DNA of 64,000 bases, taken from an uncultured Candidatus Saccharibacteria bacterium. Its GTDB lineage: Bacteria > Patescibacteriota > Minisyncoccia > Phycocordibacterales > UBA918. Below are positions 2,256-61,910 of this stretch, piece by piece. Position 1 is the stretch's first letter; each line of letters starts with the position of its first letter. Where the stretch lies: NCBI GenBank assembly GCA_964611205.1, contig CAZSZB010000002.1, positions 10,609 to 74,608 of the forward strand. The letters run 5' to 3'. The notes under the pieces were generated by a model that was not told the origin of the DNA, did no database searches, and saw nothing but the letters and a program-made list of their open reading frames with translations. Position numbers and translations under genes: made by a program.

Positions 2256-3674
<1,419 letters not shown>

Positions 3675-4779: not shown

Positions 4780-6351
4780 TTAAGCAACAGGTTTGTAGTT
4801 TTGAGGGTGGGCTTCTTTATAGTCTTTAATAGCTTTATCGAGCTTTTCTATTATTTCGTCAGTAAGTTCACGACCTGTTTCAATGTCGGTTAAAATCTCC
4901 TTTCGATCACGTTCTACAAACTCGATAAAAGTCTGTTCAATCTTTCGAGTATTTTCTACTGGGGCTCCAAAGAAGATACCTTGGTTAGCGGCGTAAATAG
5001 CAATCACTTGTTTTTGGAATGGAACCGGTTGGTTTTGGCCCTGTTTCAACAACTCAACATATTTACGACCTGATTCGATACGATTTTTTGTATCTTCATC
5101 AAGATCTGAAGCAAATTGCATAAAAGCCTCTAACTCTCTGAATTGTGCCAATTCAAGACGAATCTTACCTGACACTTTCTTCATCGCTTTAGTTTGAGCG
5201 GAAGAACCTACTCGAGATACAGAAATACCGACATCCAGAGCTGGGCGGATACCTTTATTAAACAAATCAGTATCTAGGAAAATCTGACCATCAGTGATTG
5301 AAATCACGTTAGTTGGAATATAAGCAGACACGTCACCTTCTTGGGTCTCAATAATAGGCAGGGCAGTAATCGATCCACTACCGAGTTCAGCTGAGAGTTT
5401 AGCAGAACGCTCTAATAATCGAGAGTGGAGATAAAAGATATCACCTGGATAAGCTTCGCGTCCCGGCGGACGACGTAGAAGTAGAGACATTTGTCGATAG
5501 GCATTAGCGTGTTTAGATAAGTCATCCAGAATAATCAACACGTCTTTACCTTGCTGCATAAAATATTCACCAATAGCCATGCCTGCAAATGGTGCCAAGA
5601 AAAGAAGTGGTGACGCTTCTGAAGCTGAAGTAGCTACTATTGTTGTGTATTCCATTGCTCCGGCTTCTTCTAACTTAGCCATGATGCTTACAGTTTTTGA
5701 ACGTTTCTGCCCAATAGCTACATATATACAAATTGGTCTTTTTTCTGCTGGCTCGTGTTTCTGGTTGATGATTGTGTCAACAGCAATGGTTGTTTTACCA
5801 GTCTGTCGGTCACCAATAATCAACTCTCTTTGTCCACGACCGATAGGAATCATAGAGTCAATAGCTTTGATACCAGTGTGGATAGGTTCATTAACACTTG
5901 AACGATCCATCACCCCATAAGCAACTCGCTCGATTGGCATGTCTGCTTCCCCTTTTACTGCACCCTTACCGTCAATTGGCTCACCAAGTGGACTGACCAC
6001 TCGTCCAACTATTTCTGGACCAACTGGGATAGAAAGTAGTTTTTCAGTTCGCATTACCCGCATACCCTCTTTTACCCGAGTAGATTCGCCTAGCACTACT
6101 ACTTTAACCACGTCTTCTTCCAAGTTGAGGATCAGACCATAGAGAGCATCCTTAGCAGCAATCGTTTCAGCCAGTGATTTGCCGTCACTATCAGAAAACA
6201 CCACCATTTCCATCATCTGGGCTTCCGAAAGACCGTCAATTTCAGCAATTCCGTCACCAACTGCTGTAACCACACCGATTTCTTTCGGTGCCGATGACAG
6301 GTCGATGTTTTCTATTTCTTGCTTTATTTTATCTATAATGACTGAGCTCAT
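4780..6351 (-). CDS. atpA: ATP synthase F1 alpha subunit
   Basis: 523 aa. Walker A GDRQTGKT. Conserved alpha-subunit blocks. Confidence 0.95.
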   Translation of the reverse strand: MSSVIIDKIKQEIENIDLSSAPKEIGVVTAVGDGIAEIDGLSEAQMMEMVVFSDSDGKSLAETIAAKDALYGLILNLEEDVVKVVVLGESTRVKEGMRVMRTEKLLSIPVGPEIVGRVVSPLGEPIDGKGAVKGEADMPIERVAYGVMDRSSVNEPIHTGIKAIDSMIPIGRGQRELIIGDRQTGKTTIAVDTIINQKHEPAEKRPICIYVAIGQKRSKTVSIMAKLEEAGAMEYTTIVATSASEASPLLFLAPFAGMAIGEYFMQQGKDVLIILDDLSKHANAYRQMSLLLRRPPGREAYPGDIFYLHSRLLERSAKLSAELGSGSITALPIIETQEGDVSAYIPTNVISITDGQIFLDTDLFNKGIRPALDVGISVSRVGSSAQTKAMKKVSGKIRLELAQFRELEAFMQFASDLDEDTKNRIESGRKYVELLKQGQNQPVPFQKQVIAIYAANQGIFFGAPVENTRKIEQTFIEFVERDRKEILTDIETGRELTDEIIEKLDKAIKDYKEAHPQNYKPVA

Positions 6352-8754: not shown

Positions 8755-8985
8755 TGTGGACCAGACAGGATTCGGTCACTCTCGTGGATATTTTCTTCGT
8801 TCTATGAACTCAAAAATATCTCACTCCCTCGAATCTTACAGATTCTGTACAGGTTTCGCTCTAGCGAGCTGCAACCTTGTAATAAAATCTCCCAGACTTT
8901 ATTACACCATTCGTCGCGGTCCTCGGCTTAAGCCTGCGGACTCCGTCGCGACTCAGTTCGAATCCTGTCAAAGTCTCTCAAAAAC
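8755..8985 (-). repeat. long variant (A1) of the tRNA-linked hairpin element; ends in a third copy of the tRNA-Ala 3' end
   Basis: Read on the minus strand it has GACAGGATTCGAAC, which is the reverse complement of the tRNA-Ala T-arm 3' half. A long GC-rich hairpin follows. Then comes GTAATAAAGTC-TGGGAG-ATTTTATTAC, a hairpin with the family's TGGGAG loop. Then AGGTT..AACCT pairing and a TACAG-AAT-CTGTA hairpin. It ends ..CCGAATCCTGTCTGGTCCACA, which matches 20 nt of the tRNA-Ala 3' end. Confidence 0.5.
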
Positions 8986-9020
8986 AACAAAACCAAAGCA
9001 TTCGCTTTGGTTTTGGTTTT
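8975..9020 (-). terminator. terminator-like hairpin between elements A2 and A1
   Basis: Minus strand reads CCAAAGC-GAAT-GCTTTGG followed by TTTTGTTGTTTTTG. T-rich on both strands, so orientation is ambiguous. Confidence 0.4.
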
Positions 9021-9147
9021 TGTGGACCAGACAGGATTCGAAACATACTGTTTCAGTACAGGTTGTCAGTATTCTTAATGAATTAAGAATACTAGGCAAC
9101 CTCTTCGAATCCTGACGTAAAGCCTCCCAGGCTTTACTTCTGGTCCG
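9021..9147 (-). repeat. tRNA-linked hairpin element A2; candidate structured ncRNA or miniature insertion, built on the tRNA-Ala 3' end
   Basis: Minus strand parses as follows. CGGACCAG-AAG. Then GTAAAGCC-TGGGAG-GCTTTAC, the first hairpin. Then GTCAGGATTCGAAG-AGGTTGCC. Then a 12 bp hairpin AGTATTCTTAAT/TTAAGAATACT. Then GACAACCT, which pairs with AGGTTGCC. Then TACTG-AAA-CAGTA. Then GT-TTCGAATCCTGTCTGGTCCACA. The last 22 nt equal the tRNA-Ala 3' end. The first segments are its reverse complement, split by the YGGGAG hairpin. Confidence 0.6.
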
Positions 9148-9957: not shown

Positions 9958-10926
9958 TTAAGGTCGAGCAGTCTTCACTAGATGATCTATCAGTTCATTG
10001 TAATTACTACCGATAGCATTAATTGATTTAGGGAAAAGAGACTCTTCCGTCAAACCTGGCAAGGTGTTAACTTCCAAGAAGTAAACTTCTCCATCGGAAA
10101 TGATAAAGTCTGATCTTGAATATTGGGAAAGATTTAGTTGCTTATGAACTTCTAAGGCAGCCTCAGCCAGTTTCTGTTTTTCTGTTTTAGAAAAGCGCCC
10201 AGGACAAATTTCTTCAGTACAACCAGAGTACTTTGCTTCATAAGAGAATAAGGGAGATTCATCAGGCGATATTATTTCTATGTCTGGTAATACATAATGT
10301 TTTTGGTCTCTAAACCCTTCTAATATACCCACCGTTGCTTCCTTGCCTTTAACAAATTCCTCCACCAAAACTTCGCCGTATTTATTAAGTAATTCTTCCA
10401 ACATTGTAGATAATTCCCCTGAATGATGAGCTATCAGAGTATCAACGGAAGAGCCGCCAGAAACAGGCTTAATTACATAATGGGGACCAAAAGCTTGCGT
10501 CAAACCAAAAACTGTTTTCTGTAAATTAGTTACGTCCTGTCTCAAAACACGGGCGTGTTTTGGCATTTTAATACCAGATTCTTTAAGATGTTCTTTAGTT
10601 ATGAATTTATTGATTGCGATAGCAGAGGCATACGGATCACTACCCGTGTATGGCAAATTTAATCTCTTGATCATTCTTTGTACGGTGCCATCCTCCCCGT
10701 AAGAGCCATGTAAAGCTATAAAAACAACATCAACATCAGATAAAATATTTTGTTGATCACGGCAGAGACCATCACAAAGCCATTCCCCATTTTTAGTAAT
10801 GGTTATATCTTTGGTTGAATAACCTAAATCGCGTAGGGCACGCAACACATTAGACCCAGTTTTTAAGGAAACTTCGTATTCGGCACTAGGTCCGCCACGC
10901 AAAACTGCAACCCGATTATATTTCAT
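9958..10926 (-). CDS. ddl: D-alanine--D-alanine ligase
   Basis: 322 aa. Conserved N-terminal block of the Ddl family (VAVLRGGPSAEYEVSL). ATP-grasp C-terminal half (..FLEVNTLPGLTE..). Confidence 0.9.
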   Translation of the reverse strand: MKYNRVAVLRGGPSAEYEVSLKTGSNVLRALRDLGYSTKDITITKNGEWLCDGLCRDQQNILSDVDVVFIALHGSYGEDGTVQRMIKRLNLPYTGSDPYASAIAINKFITKEHLKESGIKMPKHARVLRQDVTNLQKTVFGLTQAFGPHYVIKPVSGGSSVDTLIAHHSGELSTMLEELLNKYGEVLVEEFVKGKEATVGILEGFRDQKHYVLPDIEIISPDESPLFSYEAKYSGCTEEICPGRFSKTEKQKLAEAALEVHKQLNLSQYSRSDFIISDGEVYFLEVNTLPGLTEESLFPKSINAIGSNYNELIDHLVKTARP

Positions 10927-31607: not shown

Positions 31608-31705
31608 TTTTTAAATTATAACCTGTTTAAATCAACTAAACATATCATATCTACATTTCTTTAATAAAATCGCAATACAAGTTATGATAGTCTCGCACAA
31701 ATACT

Positions 31706-31867
31706 GAGAGATGGCTAAGTGGAGCAAAAGTGAAGTGTTTCACTTTTGCTCCGGTCTTCGAACGAAGTGAGAAGATTGGCCGTTGTGAGCGAATGAGAAC
31801 AGGCCAAAGGAGGAAACGTAGTCGAACGCCTAATGAAGAACAAGCGTTCTTACAAAAACAAGTATAT
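31706..31867 (+). repeat. tRNA-Ser 5'-end-initiated repeat unit C1
   Basis: Begins GAGAGATGGCTAAGTGG, a copy of the tRNA-Ser 5' end. A 14 bp hairpin follows (GGAGCAAAAGTGAA-GTGT-TTCACTTTTGCTCC). Then GGTCTTCGAAC. It shares GTTGTGAG and AGGAGGAAAC with unit C2. Ends in a small hairpin. Confidence 0.5.
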
Positions 31868-32029
31868 GGAGAGATGGCTGAGTGGATGAAAAGCAAACTG
31901 CTTTGCTTTTCATCCGGTTTGCGAACCTGAGAGCAAAAAGGTCGTTGTGAGTTTACGAGCAGACCTTAGGAGGAAACCGAATCGAATGCTTATAATACAA
32001 TAAAGCATTACGTAAAAAAACAAATATAC
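31868..32029 (+). repeat. tRNA-Ser 5'-end-initiated repeat unit C2
   Basis: Begins GGAGAGATGGCTGAGTGG. The 14 bp hairpin GGATGAAAAGCAAA-CTG-CTTTGCTTTTCATCC co-varies with the C1 stem. GGTTTGCGAACC, GTTGTGAG and AGGAGGAAAC motifs shared with C1. Confidence 0.5.
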
Positions 32030-32123
32030 GGAGAGATGGCTGAGTGGATGTAATTGTCTGGGAGACAATTACATCCGACCAGAGGGAGGTGGACGAACTT
32101 GTTCGACCCGAAGCCATCTCTTC
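32030..32123 (+). repeat. tRNA-Ser 5'-end-initiated element C3 with a TGGGAG-loop hairpin and closing inverted repeat
   Basis: GGAGAGATGGCT-GAGT. Then the hairpin GGATGTAATTGTC-TGGGAG-ACAATTACATCC. Then ..GGACGAAC-TTG-TTCGACC... Then AGCCATCTCTTC. The ends are an 11-12 nt inverted repeat of the tRNA-Ser 5' end. The loop is the same YGGGAG as in elements A2, B and C4. Confidence 0.55.
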
Positions 32124-32136
32124 AAAAAGAAATAAC

Positions 32137-32223
32137 GGAGAGATGGCTGAGCGGTCGAAGGCGCACGCTTGGAAAGCGTGTGAGGGTTTACGCCCTCCGG
32201 GGGTTCGAATCCCCCTCTCTCCG
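32137..32223 (+). tRNA. tRNA-Ser (anticodon GGA), type II with long variable arm
   Basis: 87 nt. Acceptor GGAGAGA/TCTCTCC. Anticodon arm CACGC-TTGGAAA-GCGTG. Variable arm TGAGGGTTTACGCCCTCC. T-arm GGGGG-TTCGAAT-CCCCC. CCA not encoded. Confidence 0.9.
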
Positions 32224-32230
32224 CGAATAC

Positions 32231-32262
32231 AAAATAGCACCCTTTTTGGGGTGCTTATTTTG
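32231..32262 (+). terminator. terminator-like hairpin immediately after tRNA-Ser
   Basis: AAAATAGCACCC-TTTTT-GGGGTGCT followed by TATTTTGTT. Confidence 0.6.
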
Positions 32263-32265
32263 TTC

Positions 32266-32397
32266 GCGGAGAGAGGAGTAACTGTCTGGGAGACAGTTAC
32301 GTGGGATTCGAAAAGCTTTTGAGCTATTTTCAAGCTGGCGTAGAAAATAGCCAAAAGGTATACAGTCCATGTAATGGACGAATCCCCCTCTCTCCGC
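32266..32397 (+). repeat. tRNA-linked hairpin element C4, built on the tRNA-Ser 3' end
   Basis: GCGGAGAGAGG-AG. Then GTAACTGTC-TGGGAG-ACAGTTAC. Then GTGGGATTCGAAAAG-CTTTTGAGC. Then hairpin TATTTTC..GAAAATA. Then GCCAAAAGG. Then hairpin GTCCAT-GTA-ATGGAC. Ends GAATCCCCCTCTCTCCGC, copying the tRNA-Ser 3' end. Same architecture as A2 and B. Confidence 0.6.
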
Positions 32398-32474
32398 TAA
32401 ATTAAAAACCCCCATATTGCCAATTAATCTAGCGGGGGTACTATAGTGAGTAATACAAAATAATAAATTTTATT

Positions 32475-35953: not shown

Positions 35954-36139
35954 ATTTATTGATATACCAACTGACCAGCACTTCTTTCAGAAGCTGTTCA
36001 GGTTGTCGCTATTCTTTACAGAACAGCTGGCAACCTTCTACAACAGTCCCACTCTTTATCACGATAATGAGCATAGATTTCTTTTCCTGGTTTATTACCA
36101 AAACATCAACATCTTTATCTATTATTTAATTATAGGTCA

Positions 36140-61760: not shown

Positions 61761-61780
61761 GTCGTACCGATTGCTGCCAG

Positions 61781-61903
61781 ACTAGGACTCGAAACTTACA
61801 GTTTCAGTACCCGTTGTCATTATCTTTCATTCTTCAAGATAATAGGCAACGGCTTCGAATCCTAACGTAACAGTCTCCCGGACTGTTACTAGCTTGGCAG
61901 CTC
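61781..61903 (-). repeat. tRNA-linked hairpin element B, built on the tRNA-Gln 3' end
   Basis: Minus strand parses as follows. GAGCTGCCAAGCTAG. Then GTAACAGTC-CGGGAG-ACTGTTAC. Then GTTAGGATTCGAAG-CCGTTGCC. Then hairpin TATTATCTT..AAGATAATG. Then ACAACGG. Then GTACTGAAACTGTAAGT. Then TTCGAGTCCTAGTCTGGCAGC. The last ~21 nt are identical to the tRNA-Gln 3' end and the first segment is its reverse complement. Confidence 0.6.
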
Positions 61904-61910
61904 TAAAGCA

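Follow-up and report, generated by a model that had tools for sequence, protein, structure and literature searches.

Structured Noncoding Elements Clamped by Copies of the Neighboring tRNA 3' End Form an Apparently Undescribed Class in Patescibacteria

INTRODUCTION

Some described recombination sites act as folded single strands. The attC site of integrons is an imperfect inverted repeat that folds on one strand, and in the attP site of the CTX phage (XerCD/dif), inverted segments of one strand rebuild a mimic of the duplex target. At tRNA genes, integrases leave direct repeats of the tRNA 3' end that start in the T-loop; the integrase identity segments in tRNA genes are likewise said to begin there. 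Here, we describe C4, a structured element of 132 nt that follows the tRNA-Ser(GGA) gene of an uncultured "Candidatus Saccharibacteria" bacterium, and its relatives. C4 lies in a stretch of 64,000 nt (positions 10,609 to 74,608 of contig CAZSZB010000002.1, assembly GCA_964611205.1; referred to here as the window), which is part of a 165,888-bp metagenome contig carrying ordinary cellular genes. Together with 10 kb of the source contig on either side, the window gave 84 kb of readable genome. C4 begins with the complement (AS) of the 3' end of the neighboring tRNA and ends with a copy (S) of that 3' end. Structured cassettes clamped by tRNA ends in this manner are apparently a Patescibacteria-wide and undescribed class.

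RESULTS

Architecture of C4 and its sister elements

C4 folds as a three-way junction of helices P1, P2, and P3, with hairpins P4 and P5 enclosed by P3 (Table 1). In P1, positions 32266-76 pair with 32387-97 (i.e., AS with the acceptor 3' strand and, beyond it, the discriminator plus one base); in P3, GGGAUUC (32303-09) pairs with GAAUCCC (32380-86), an anti-T-loop strand with a copy of the T-loop. A single unpaired A separates P1 from P2, a GU linker separates P2 from P3, and P3 encloses J3/4 (GAAAAG), P4, J4/5 (GUAUACA), and P5. The 3' strands of P3 and P1 run unbroken as the tRNA copy S. Taken together, the AS:S and anti-T-loop:T-loop pairings form a double-stranded image of the tRNA gene's 3' end, from which P2, P4, and P5 project. 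As RNA, positions 32267-32397 (131 nt) have a minimum free energy (MFE) of −63.1 kcal/mol, compared with −31.0 ± 3.7 kcal/mol for shuffled sequences (z = −8.6; 0 of 200 shuffles as good). The motif GTCTGGGAGAC occurs five times in the window against 0.5 expected, four of these at tRNA loci. The arms of the spacer terminator extend the palindrome formed by the tRNA-Ser 3' end and the C4 5' strand.

An earlier note on this DNA had described the final 18 nt of C4 as a duplicate of the tRNA-Ser 3' end, and a k-mer map gave an exact match to 32207-32224. Strictly, this stretch opens with the final 4 nt of the T-loop, continues through the 3' strands of the T-stem and the acceptor, and closes with the discriminator G plus one base beyond it. 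Every sequence feature that the note listed for C4 was found at its site. The span it gave, 32137-32397, does contain C4 but is too wide: C4 proper starts at 32266, and the span takes in the tRNA-Ser gene and the terminator as well. The note put forward no function, and the anti-T-loop pairing of P3, the alternative pairing of AS, and the presence or absence of units among strains are additions of the present analysis.

Two sister elements in the same genome, A1 and B, share the C4-like architecture, with their own tRNA 3' end at the terminus and its complement at the start. The terminal copy is 25 nt long in A1 (tRNA-Ala 3' end with flank) and 21 nt long in B (tRNA-Gln 3' end). A1, B, and C4 all match one covariance model (~100-115 bits), each with a terminus taken from its own tRNA, in agreement with the view that C4 is the third member of a tRNA-adjacent family whose closing stem comes from the neighboring tRNA. 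A2, a variant unit following A1, has a contiguous AS, with the P2 and P4-GUAC-P5 modules rearranged inside and two extra hairpins. tRNA genes were called with ARAGORN and Rfam RF00005, and terminators were located by a scan for G+C-rich hairpins with a T-run.

A search for copies beside other tRNAs had been set beforehand as a possible refutation of the family and did not refute it; all three tRNAs within the 84 kb carry the element, and the flanking 10 kb on each side added no tRNA. The three loci are not recent segmental duplicates, because core identity is 0.72 between A1 and B and 0.54-0.57 between C4 and either of them, as the earlier note had argued from their different ends. Copies within the 84 kb (identities of 0.44-0.73) were linked to tRNAs, apart from one P4/P5-like fragment at 35980-36037 on the minus strand. 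This fragment reads GGTTGCCAGC...GCGACAACC followed by a small hairpin (covariance-model E-value of 6e-4) and occupies a non-tRNA intergenic site between the peptidase M48 and methyladenine glycosylase genes.

TABLE 1 Positions of C4, its sister elements, and related features (window coordinates unless a locus is named)
Feature	Position	Strand	Basis or remark
tRNA-Ser(GGA) gene	32137-32224	+	ARAGORN; Rfam RF00005, 56.2 bits
Source of S in tRNA-Ser gene	32207-32224	+	Last 18 nt, copied by C4
Spacer, 41 nt, with bidirectional intrinsic terminator	32225-32265	+	Terminator stem 32236-32255, then T-run TATTTTGTTC
C4 proper, 132 nt	32266-32397	+	Sequence inspection, fold
AS (P1 5' strand), GCGGAGAGAGG	32266-32276	+	Complements acceptor 3' strand, discriminator, and 1 nt; antisense k-mer map
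P2 hairpin, GTAACTGTC-TGGGA-GACAGTTAC	32278-32300	+	Stem of 9-10 bp; family-conserved loop U-GGG-A, 32287-32291
Segment GTGGGATTCGAAAAG	32301-32315	+	Sequence inspection
P3 5' strand, GGGATTC (anti-T-loop)	32303-32309	+	Partner 32380-32386; fold, helix 2 of alignment
P4 long hairpin	32316-32357	+	CTTTTG/CAAAAG, bulged A32322, GCTATTTTC/GAAAATAGC
J4/5, GTATACA	32358-32364	+	"AC" invariant in family alignment; consensus (G/A)UAC(N)G
P5 hairpin, GTCCA-TGTAA-TGGAC	32365-32379	+	5 bp; loop U-GUA-A
S copy, GAATCCCCCTCTCTCCGC, 18 nt	32380-32397	+	P3 3' strand 32380-32386; P1 3' strand 32387-32397
A1, 3' of tRNA-Ala(TGC)	9022-9146	-	Covariance model, 100.4 bits; fold z = −10.1
A2, variant unit following A1	8756-8979	-	Weak covariance-model match, 8828-8905
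B, 3' of tRNA-Gln(CTG)	61773-61904	-	Covariance model, 99.2 bits
C3, mirror-image element 5' of tRNA-Ser	32030-32123	+	Same arrangement in L019, 378-466 (+)
C1 and C2, tandem 162-nt units	31706-32029	+	Homologue in L017, ~2380-2596 (+), upstream of another tRNA-Ser
tRNA-Ser(ACT)	L017 110-197 and 2597-2684; L019 477-564; L031 11754-11843; L049 2139-2226		ARAGORN

Conservation of the fold

The P1-P5 fold is real. Covariation statistics were computed over 30 base pairs in 36 distinct model-aligned sequences, with 500 shuffles and with controls in which pairing partners were slid along the alignment. Of the base-pair cells, 96.0% were paired, compared with 71.4% after shuffling, and none of the 500 shuffles reached any of the measures; sliding the partners by 1-3 columns lowered pairing to 33-51%. 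Changes on both sides were seen at 24 of the 30 pairs, distributed by helix as 6/7 pairs in P2 (helix 1), 13/13 in P4 (helices 3 and 4), and 5/5 in P5 (helix 5). The earlier note had read a single compensated A-T to T-A swap between the P2 stems of C4 and B as the signature of a conserved paired helix. Both the swap and its reading hold, with no shuffled or slid control coming close to the observed double changes. Because the 36-sequence alignment is fitted to the model, it matters that RNAalifold on a MAFFT alignment also gave compensatory changes, at 22/30 pairs.

P1, scored separately, reached an ungapped score of at least 15 in 23 of the 36 copies, orphans included. At one locus (L020), both strands of the element have changed such that a G-C pair of the tRNA now reads A-U, which indicates that P1 itself is under selection. 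Outside P3, the tRNA-sense strand contains 26 G.U pairs against 7 A.C pairs, and the folding strand is therefore the tRNA-sense strand. This strand signal fits RNA and single-stranded DNA alike; with DNA folding parameters, both strands fold equally well.

Outside the search pattern, conserved positions are found in J4/5 ("AC"), in the P5 loop (GUA), and at the tip of P4, which forms a tandem-G.A/GNA mini-hairpin. The P4 apex is often UGAGC-GNA-GCGAA (e.g., L005, L043, and L024; alignment A5, columns ~66-85), with tandem G.A pairs around a GC-GNA-GC mini-hairpin; in its DNA form, this motif is known to be unusually stable. A pseudoknot between the "UAC" of J4/5 and the "GUA" of the P5 loop was rejected, as the CAC variants do not covary.

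Distribution of the family

The family search started from a 20-base pattern, spanning the P2 loop to P3, against species-representative genomes and Joint Genome Institute (JGI) metagenomes. The species-representative genomes gave 11 loci, 9 of them real, and all 9 were from Patescibacteria (Paceibacteria, Saccharibacteria, and Parcubacteria); the two Chloroflexota matches were chance matches inside coding sequence. The JGI metagenomes gave 35 loci. A covariance model trained on 27 cores then matched strongly (74-125 bits) at 37 places in 26 sources, every one of them from Patescibacteria; weaker and partial matches were also obtained. Two pattern scans of viral contigs gave no match and thus no evidence for a phage origin. 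Searches of the three loci against Rfam 15, at gathering and E-value thresholds, returned real tRNAs only, and literature searches found no description of such elements.

Wherever an upstream tRNA was detectable, it was on the same strand as the element, and the element terminus was the 3' end of that tRNA. The associated tRNAs are Ser (GGA, GCT, and ACT), Ala (TGC and GGC), Gln, Tyr, His, and Asn. Units are ordered as a spacer (usually with an intrinsic terminator), AS, P2, the anti-T-loop strand, P4, P5, and S. The conserved core measures ~105-120 nt (the 132 nt of C4 include the closing strands), and variant units are longer. Tandem arrays are frequent, with 4-5 heterogeneous units at most (L024, L013, L014, and L041).

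ARAGORN missed the tRNA upstream of the element in L010 (~4810-5030), in which intron-like sequence precedes a 3' half that matches tRNA-Asn. We attribute the miss to the group I introns reported at anticodon position 35/36 of Patescibacteria tRNA-Asn (PMC13011429). ARAGORN also called tRNA-Ser with anticodon ACT (A34), unusual for bacteria, in several Patescibacteria contigs beside a normal tRNA-Ser(GCT).

Origin of the borrowed tRNA ends

At the Ser, Ala, Gln, Tyr, His, and Asn genes, S reproduces the adjacent tRNA end exactly, extending from the T-loop to a few bases beyond the discriminator, and AS is its complement. Direct exact repeats of the tRNA end frame the insert; they measure 18 nt at Ser, 25 nt at Ala (29 nt where A2 is lacking), and 21 nt at Gln. 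S extends past the mature 3' end (e.g., CACAAAATAAA at the Ala locus), and CCA occurs in no copy. As it carries genomic 3' flank and lacks CCA, S was copied from DNA and not from mature tRNA, and an origin by reverse transcription of mature tRNA was rejected on these grounds. The possibility that AS is a copy of the tRNA 5' acceptor strand was also rejected: the AS of A1 has A3 where tRNA-Ala has G3, and AS pairs with the discriminator and the flank.

Gain, loss, and decay of units

Whole units are polymorphic among strains. A 266-bp unit, comprising A2 and its preceding spacer, is present in this contig (L051) and precisely absent in three contigs from other samples (L052, L057, and L058), whose flanks are otherwise identical, with one single-nucleotide polymorphism in the aligned stretch. 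The gap (region 8756-9041, minus strand) is bounded by a 23-nt S repeat of the tRNA-Ala 3' end; in the short allele, which lacks A2, the repeat flanking A1 is 29 nt long and reaches 8 nt beyond the tRNA. Copy number varies from 0 to 5 per tRNA. At the tRNA-Ala locus of two distant relatives, in which the UvrC-Ddl-hypothetical-tRNA synteny is kept, the site is occupied in both, by a decayed cassette in one relative and by an A2-like one in the other.

Truncated copies (L049 and L048:7266), decayed copies (L010 and L078), and copies with a decayed S (L010 and L017) were found, along with a chimera (L046) that has a Ser end upstream, an Ala-like end downstream, and a broken P1. Three orphans (L005, L022, and L026) follow a terminator, with only a decayed S upstream and P1 still perfect. 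A 537-bp segment of 98% identity is common to L017 and L031/L040 in unrelated contexts and runs from the last 4 nt of a Ser-type S to the end of a tRNA-Ser gene, and a dispersed partial copy in L048 begins at the last 6 nt of S. Pairwise identities within the family are 0.44-0.9, and the nearest cores cross tRNA types (Ser(GCT)/Ala(GGC), 0.87; His/Asn, 0.82; Ser/Asn, 0.82). A2 and L080 have the same modules in a different order, which is easier to reconcile with modular binding sites than with a single rigid RNA fold.

These palindromic elements break up metagenome assemblies at tRNA loci. In other strains, contigs of the Ser and Gln loci stop within the palindromes, and many short-read contigs from other samples end in or at the edge of elements (L053-L056, L062-L065, L070-L075, L002, and L004).

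Transcriptional setting and relatives upstream of tRNAs

In most units, a terminator separates the tRNA from the core, and no promoter-like site lies between them; besides that of C4, terminators were found at 9178-9156 (on the plus strand) and 9015-8988 (on both strands). Two units follow their tRNA without a terminator, after 25 nt in L027 and 32 nt in L048. The S of the tRNA, the spacer, and AS make up one long palindrome, so that AS has two alternative partners, namely, the real tRNA end and the distal copy. In the predicted fold of a cotranscript (32137-32400, plus strand; MFE of −140.3 kcal/mol; z = −11.3), AS pairs with the tRNA's own 3' end and the tRNA body is closed by the distal S instead, such that the cassette would resemble a T-loop insertion of ~175 nt. 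This fold is a thermodynamic prediction only; in vivo, the tRNA folds and the terminator acts before AS is made.

Related elements lie on the 5' side of tRNA-Ser. C3 has the mirror-image order, with a copy of the first 18 nt of tRNA-Ser, a UGGGA hairpin, the core, the antisense of the copy, and 13 nt before the tRNA. Its conserved core is CCGACCAGAGGGAGGUGGACGAACUUGUUCGACCCGA, with a T-arm-like CUUG-UUCGACC-CGAG, and the element is conserved in a second genome (L019). C1 and C2 each start with the tRNA-Ser 5' end; a 14-bp hairpin comes next, then the GGUCGUUGUGAG...CAGACC hairpin, AGGAGGAAAC, and a hairpin with covarying arms (GAACGC/GCGUUC). They have no antisense strand. The sole promoter-like site (31661-31688) is upstream of C1, from which we infer that C1-C3 probably belong to the tRNA-Ser leader transcript; C1 and C2 are probably part of a leader of ~440 nt starting from this site.

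In L048 (2680-2945, plus strand), three hairpin units with UCCCA-like loops, the complement of UGGGA, are located directly upstream of tRNA-Ala(GGC), and the last of them abuts the 5' end of the tRNA. Kissing between leader and trailer, through these loops and the downstream UGGGA loop, is conceivable.

DISCUSSION

We consider that C4 and its relatives may be protein-less cassettes that are gained and lost at repeats of the tRNA end, with the folded strand rebuilding an image of the duplex target, and we favor this reading, at a probability of roughly 40%. The unit would be nonautonomous and essentially selfish, and recombination at the S repeats would account for its insertion and deletion. 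As a mimic of the duplex target, the folded strand would serve as the recombination substrate, as do integron attC and CTX phage attP, and P2, P4, and P5 would be handles for a hypothetical enzyme encoded elsewhere in the genome. By keeping the tRNA gene properly terminated after insertion, the leading terminator could allow the host to tolerate the cassette, and templated perfecting of the S-terminator-AS palindrome is a possible route for rematching AS and S to a new tRNA. The cassette reading gains support from the position of the core, which is poorly placed for expression, with a terminator before it in most units and no promoter-like site. The single-strand fold, the tRNA-specific and DNA-derived S, the retention of P1 in most copies, the turnover of units, the passage of cores from one tRNA type to another, and the reordered modules of A2 and L080 also speak for it.

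A series of observations weighs against this reading. The A2 polymorphism may be a deletion between the 23-nt direct repeats and not an insertion, and no empty site and no circular junction were seen. The cassette reading does not account for how one core acquires both the AS and the S for a new tRNA. The attC boxes RYYYAAC/GTTRRRY are absent; C4 ends GCGGAGAGAGG ... CCTCTCTCCGC, and the ends vary with the tRNA. The conserved loops and junctions (UGGGA, UGUAA, UAC, and the tandem G.A at the P4 tip) are more typical of a functional RNA than of attC, and the units of L027 and L048, lacking a terminator, must be transcribed. Persistence of cassettes at orthologous tRNA-Ala genes of distant relatives may also mean a host function. 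Finally, Pfam searches of 20 window open reading frames (ORFs) and of 128 ORFs from 20 other loci (for the latter, the 25 families with the most members, along with ten ORFs scanned one by one) revealed no consistently nearby recombinase or transposase; the neighbors listed are housekeeping genes. Tyrosine recombinases are not among the families listed for the 128 ORFs. Inserts of ~130-270 bp contain no plausible ORF and no integrase gene, and no ORF is conserved across members.

Two proteins resembling those of mobile elements were the only ones of their kind among the families listed near the elements: a large serine recombinase beside tRNA-Leu (L015, 4851-6518, minus strand), 2.4 kb from a tRNA-His element, and a 903-amino-acid superfamily 1 helicase right after a tRNA-Asn array (L041, 908-3616, plus strand).

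A rather improbable alternative is nucleic-acid-guided insertion, in which AS (10-20 nt, programmable, and split by P2) would select a tRNA end by base pairing and its alternate pairing with the upstream and downstream S would set both ends. The element would then be a 130-nt, protein-less, retargetable unit served by a hypothetical enzyme, with C3-type relatives targeting tRNA 5' ends. An equally novel alternative at the RNA level would be acceptor-stem decoys or scaffolds tailored to individual tRNAs. The main rival of the cassette reading, which we hold to be possible although doubtful, is a structured RNA released from the tRNA 3' trailer by read-through, or directly where there is no terminator, to act, for instance, as a scaffold or decoy for a tRNA-binding protein; in one version, the acceptor-like P1 would provide tRNA-like ends for RNase P/Z or protection from exonucleases. 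Strong covariation with invariant loop and junction nucleotides, the excess of G.U over A.C on the tRNA-sense strand, the location of C1-C3 between the promoter-like site and the tRNA, the retention of P1 in orphan copies, and the persistence of cassettes at the orthologous tRNA-Ala loci of distant relatives all favor an RNA, as do the L027 and L048 units, which have no terminator and hence must be cotranscribed. Most units, however, have a terminator before them and none has its own promoter, and the presence of 0 to 5 copies per tRNA, frequent decay or truncation, and differences among strains are not what would be expected of a needed RNA. Pairing in P1 often extends to the discriminator and further, which is unfavorable for RNase P/Z or for CCA addition, A1 has A-U in place of the Ala identity pair G3.U70, and the RNA reading gives no reason why the ends match the neighboring tRNA. 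Either the cassette or the structured RNA would be new.

Other explanations are less probable. A cis-acting conformational switch on tRNA maturation, in which AS alternates between two partners (the tRNA's real 3' end and the distal S) and the core senses a ligand or protein, seems improbable to us. With AS on the real end, the terminator hairpin would be extended and the acceptor and T arms unfolded, setting the amount of functional tRNA. The MFE fold of the cotranscript, with AS on the real 3' end and distal S closing the tRNA body, speaks for such a switch, and the mirror-image order (S copy, core, AS, 13 nt, and tRNA) on the 5' side of tRNA-Ser in C3 and in L019 is compatible with it. Against a switch, orphans keep P1 without an upstream tRNA, multiunit arrays would make no sense, the tRNA is folded and transcription ended before AS is made, and Rfam gave no similarity to riboswitches or T-boxes. 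Inert debris, i.e., att-site scars of larger elements or local duplications of tRNA ends with no selection on structure, is a very unlikely explanation despite the direct repeats of the tRNA 3' end from the T-loop and the existence of decayed copies: size and architecture are consistent across the phylum, 24/30 pairs covary (compensatory changes that debris would not retain), no unit has an integrase gene or remnant ORF, and the inverted copy AS is not a product of simple integration. The covariation already largely rules debris out, and the aligned copies are not very recent. Hardly credible, finally, is a degenerate tRNA, tmRNA-like, or intron-containing gene, such as a tRNA-Ser pseudogene with its interior replaced. 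The acceptor-like closing helix does use the tRNA 3' strand, GGAUUCGA is similar to the conserved tmRNA 5' motif, and the cotranscript fold has the look of a T-loop insertion. Yet ARAGORN made no call and Rfam gave no match even at an E-value of ≤10; D arm, T-stem 5' strand, and tag ORF are missing; and AS is complementary to S and not a copy of a 5' strand, with A3 against G3 in A1 and with the discriminator and flank paired.

Patescibacteria (the candidate phyla radiation, CPR) have tiny genomes, yet up to several hundred bases per tRNA gene are spent on these covarying elements. Should the units be mobile cassettes, no smaller insertion unit that mimics its target would be known, and they would imply a recombination activity on tRNA gene ends with specificity by base pairing, which is relevant to programmable DNA insertion. 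Should they be RNAs, they would add a new and widespread class of RNAs, linked to tRNA biology, in a phylum with a large share of bacterial diversity. On either reading, assemblies break at tRNA loci and the elements mimic tRNA fragments in annotation.

Comparison with known systems

The tests for membership in known families failed, and we therefore file the element under none of them. Rfam gave no tRNA match over 32266-32397, 9022-9146, and 61773-61904 even at E-values of ≤10 or 1, and ARAGORN found the three real tRNAs only; neither program found a tmRNA. The riboswitch, T-box, ribozyme, and group I intron models of Rfam 15 gave nothing relevant at gathering or E-value thresholds. By inspection, a hammerhead or other small-ribozyme core was rejected, the junction lacking CUGAUGA and similar motifs. 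Retron msr/msd, bridge RNA, and TnpB/IscB omega RNA were also rejected, since they need an adjacent reverse transcriptase, recombinase, or nuclease gene and their guides sit in loops or free ends, whereas the strands here are paired.

Likeness to tRNA-like structures (viral tRNA-like structures, mascRNA, the tRNA-like domain of tmRNA, and bacterial Y RNA) consists of an acceptor-like end helix, real tRNA sequence, and non-tRNA domains. The element differs in having no T arm (its T-loop copy is paired) and no free NCCA end; its helix sequence is borrowed from the adjacent tRNA gene, and no match to Rfam clan CL00001 was obtained. The ends of IS200/IS605 insertion sequences, palindrome-associated transposable elements (PATEs), and repetitive extragenic palindromes (REPs) with their mosaic elements (BIMEs) are similarly small, noncoding, hairpin-rich, and strand specific, and known ones are mobilized in trans. 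In IS608, cleavage and target sites are set by guide pairing inside the element end, and AS could pair with S in this way. Their guides, however, are 4-5 nt in length, compared with 10-20 nt here, they have no tRNA-end copies, and no TnpA or RAYT gene was seen here. In contrast to those scattered repeats, the copies here are not near identical; the dispersed near-identical copies typical of miniature inverted-repeat transposable elements (MITEs), PATEs, and REPs were not found within the 84 kb.

Integrons offer a closer parallel. Like attC, the element is a protein-independent site and an imperfect inverted repeat folding on one strand, which AS:S and anti-T-loop:T-loop close, and its structure is kept above its sequence; units stand in same-orientation tandem arrays by a fixed primary site, whole units are gained or lost, and shared segments begin a few bases before the end of the previous site. 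In contrast to integrons, the element has no R/L boxes and no nearby IntI (neither intI nor attI was found, and the ORFs checked around the three window loci are housekeeping genes), and its "cargo" is a terminator only. The primary site here is the end of a tRNA gene, which the folded site copies; the apical hairpins are conserved in sequence, unlike the variable terminal structures of attC; and the hosts are Patescibacteria and not Proteobacteria. With CTX attP, the element shares the rebuilding of a duplex target mimic from inverted segments of one strand and the tandem arrays at the target, but the target is a tRNA 3' end and not dif, the unit has ~130 nt and no genes, and there is no evidence for Xer or phage. 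As in the attL/attR sites of tRNA integrases, a direct repeat of the tRNA 3' end runs from the T-loop to just past the gene and the tRNA stays intact; the units here differ in their size (130-270 bp), in the absence of an integrase or other ORF, in the inverted copy AS, and in the covarying core. In its proposed working, the element would thus be most like attC or CTX attP, while the repeat from the T-loop to the 3' end is what it has in common with the att sites of integrases.

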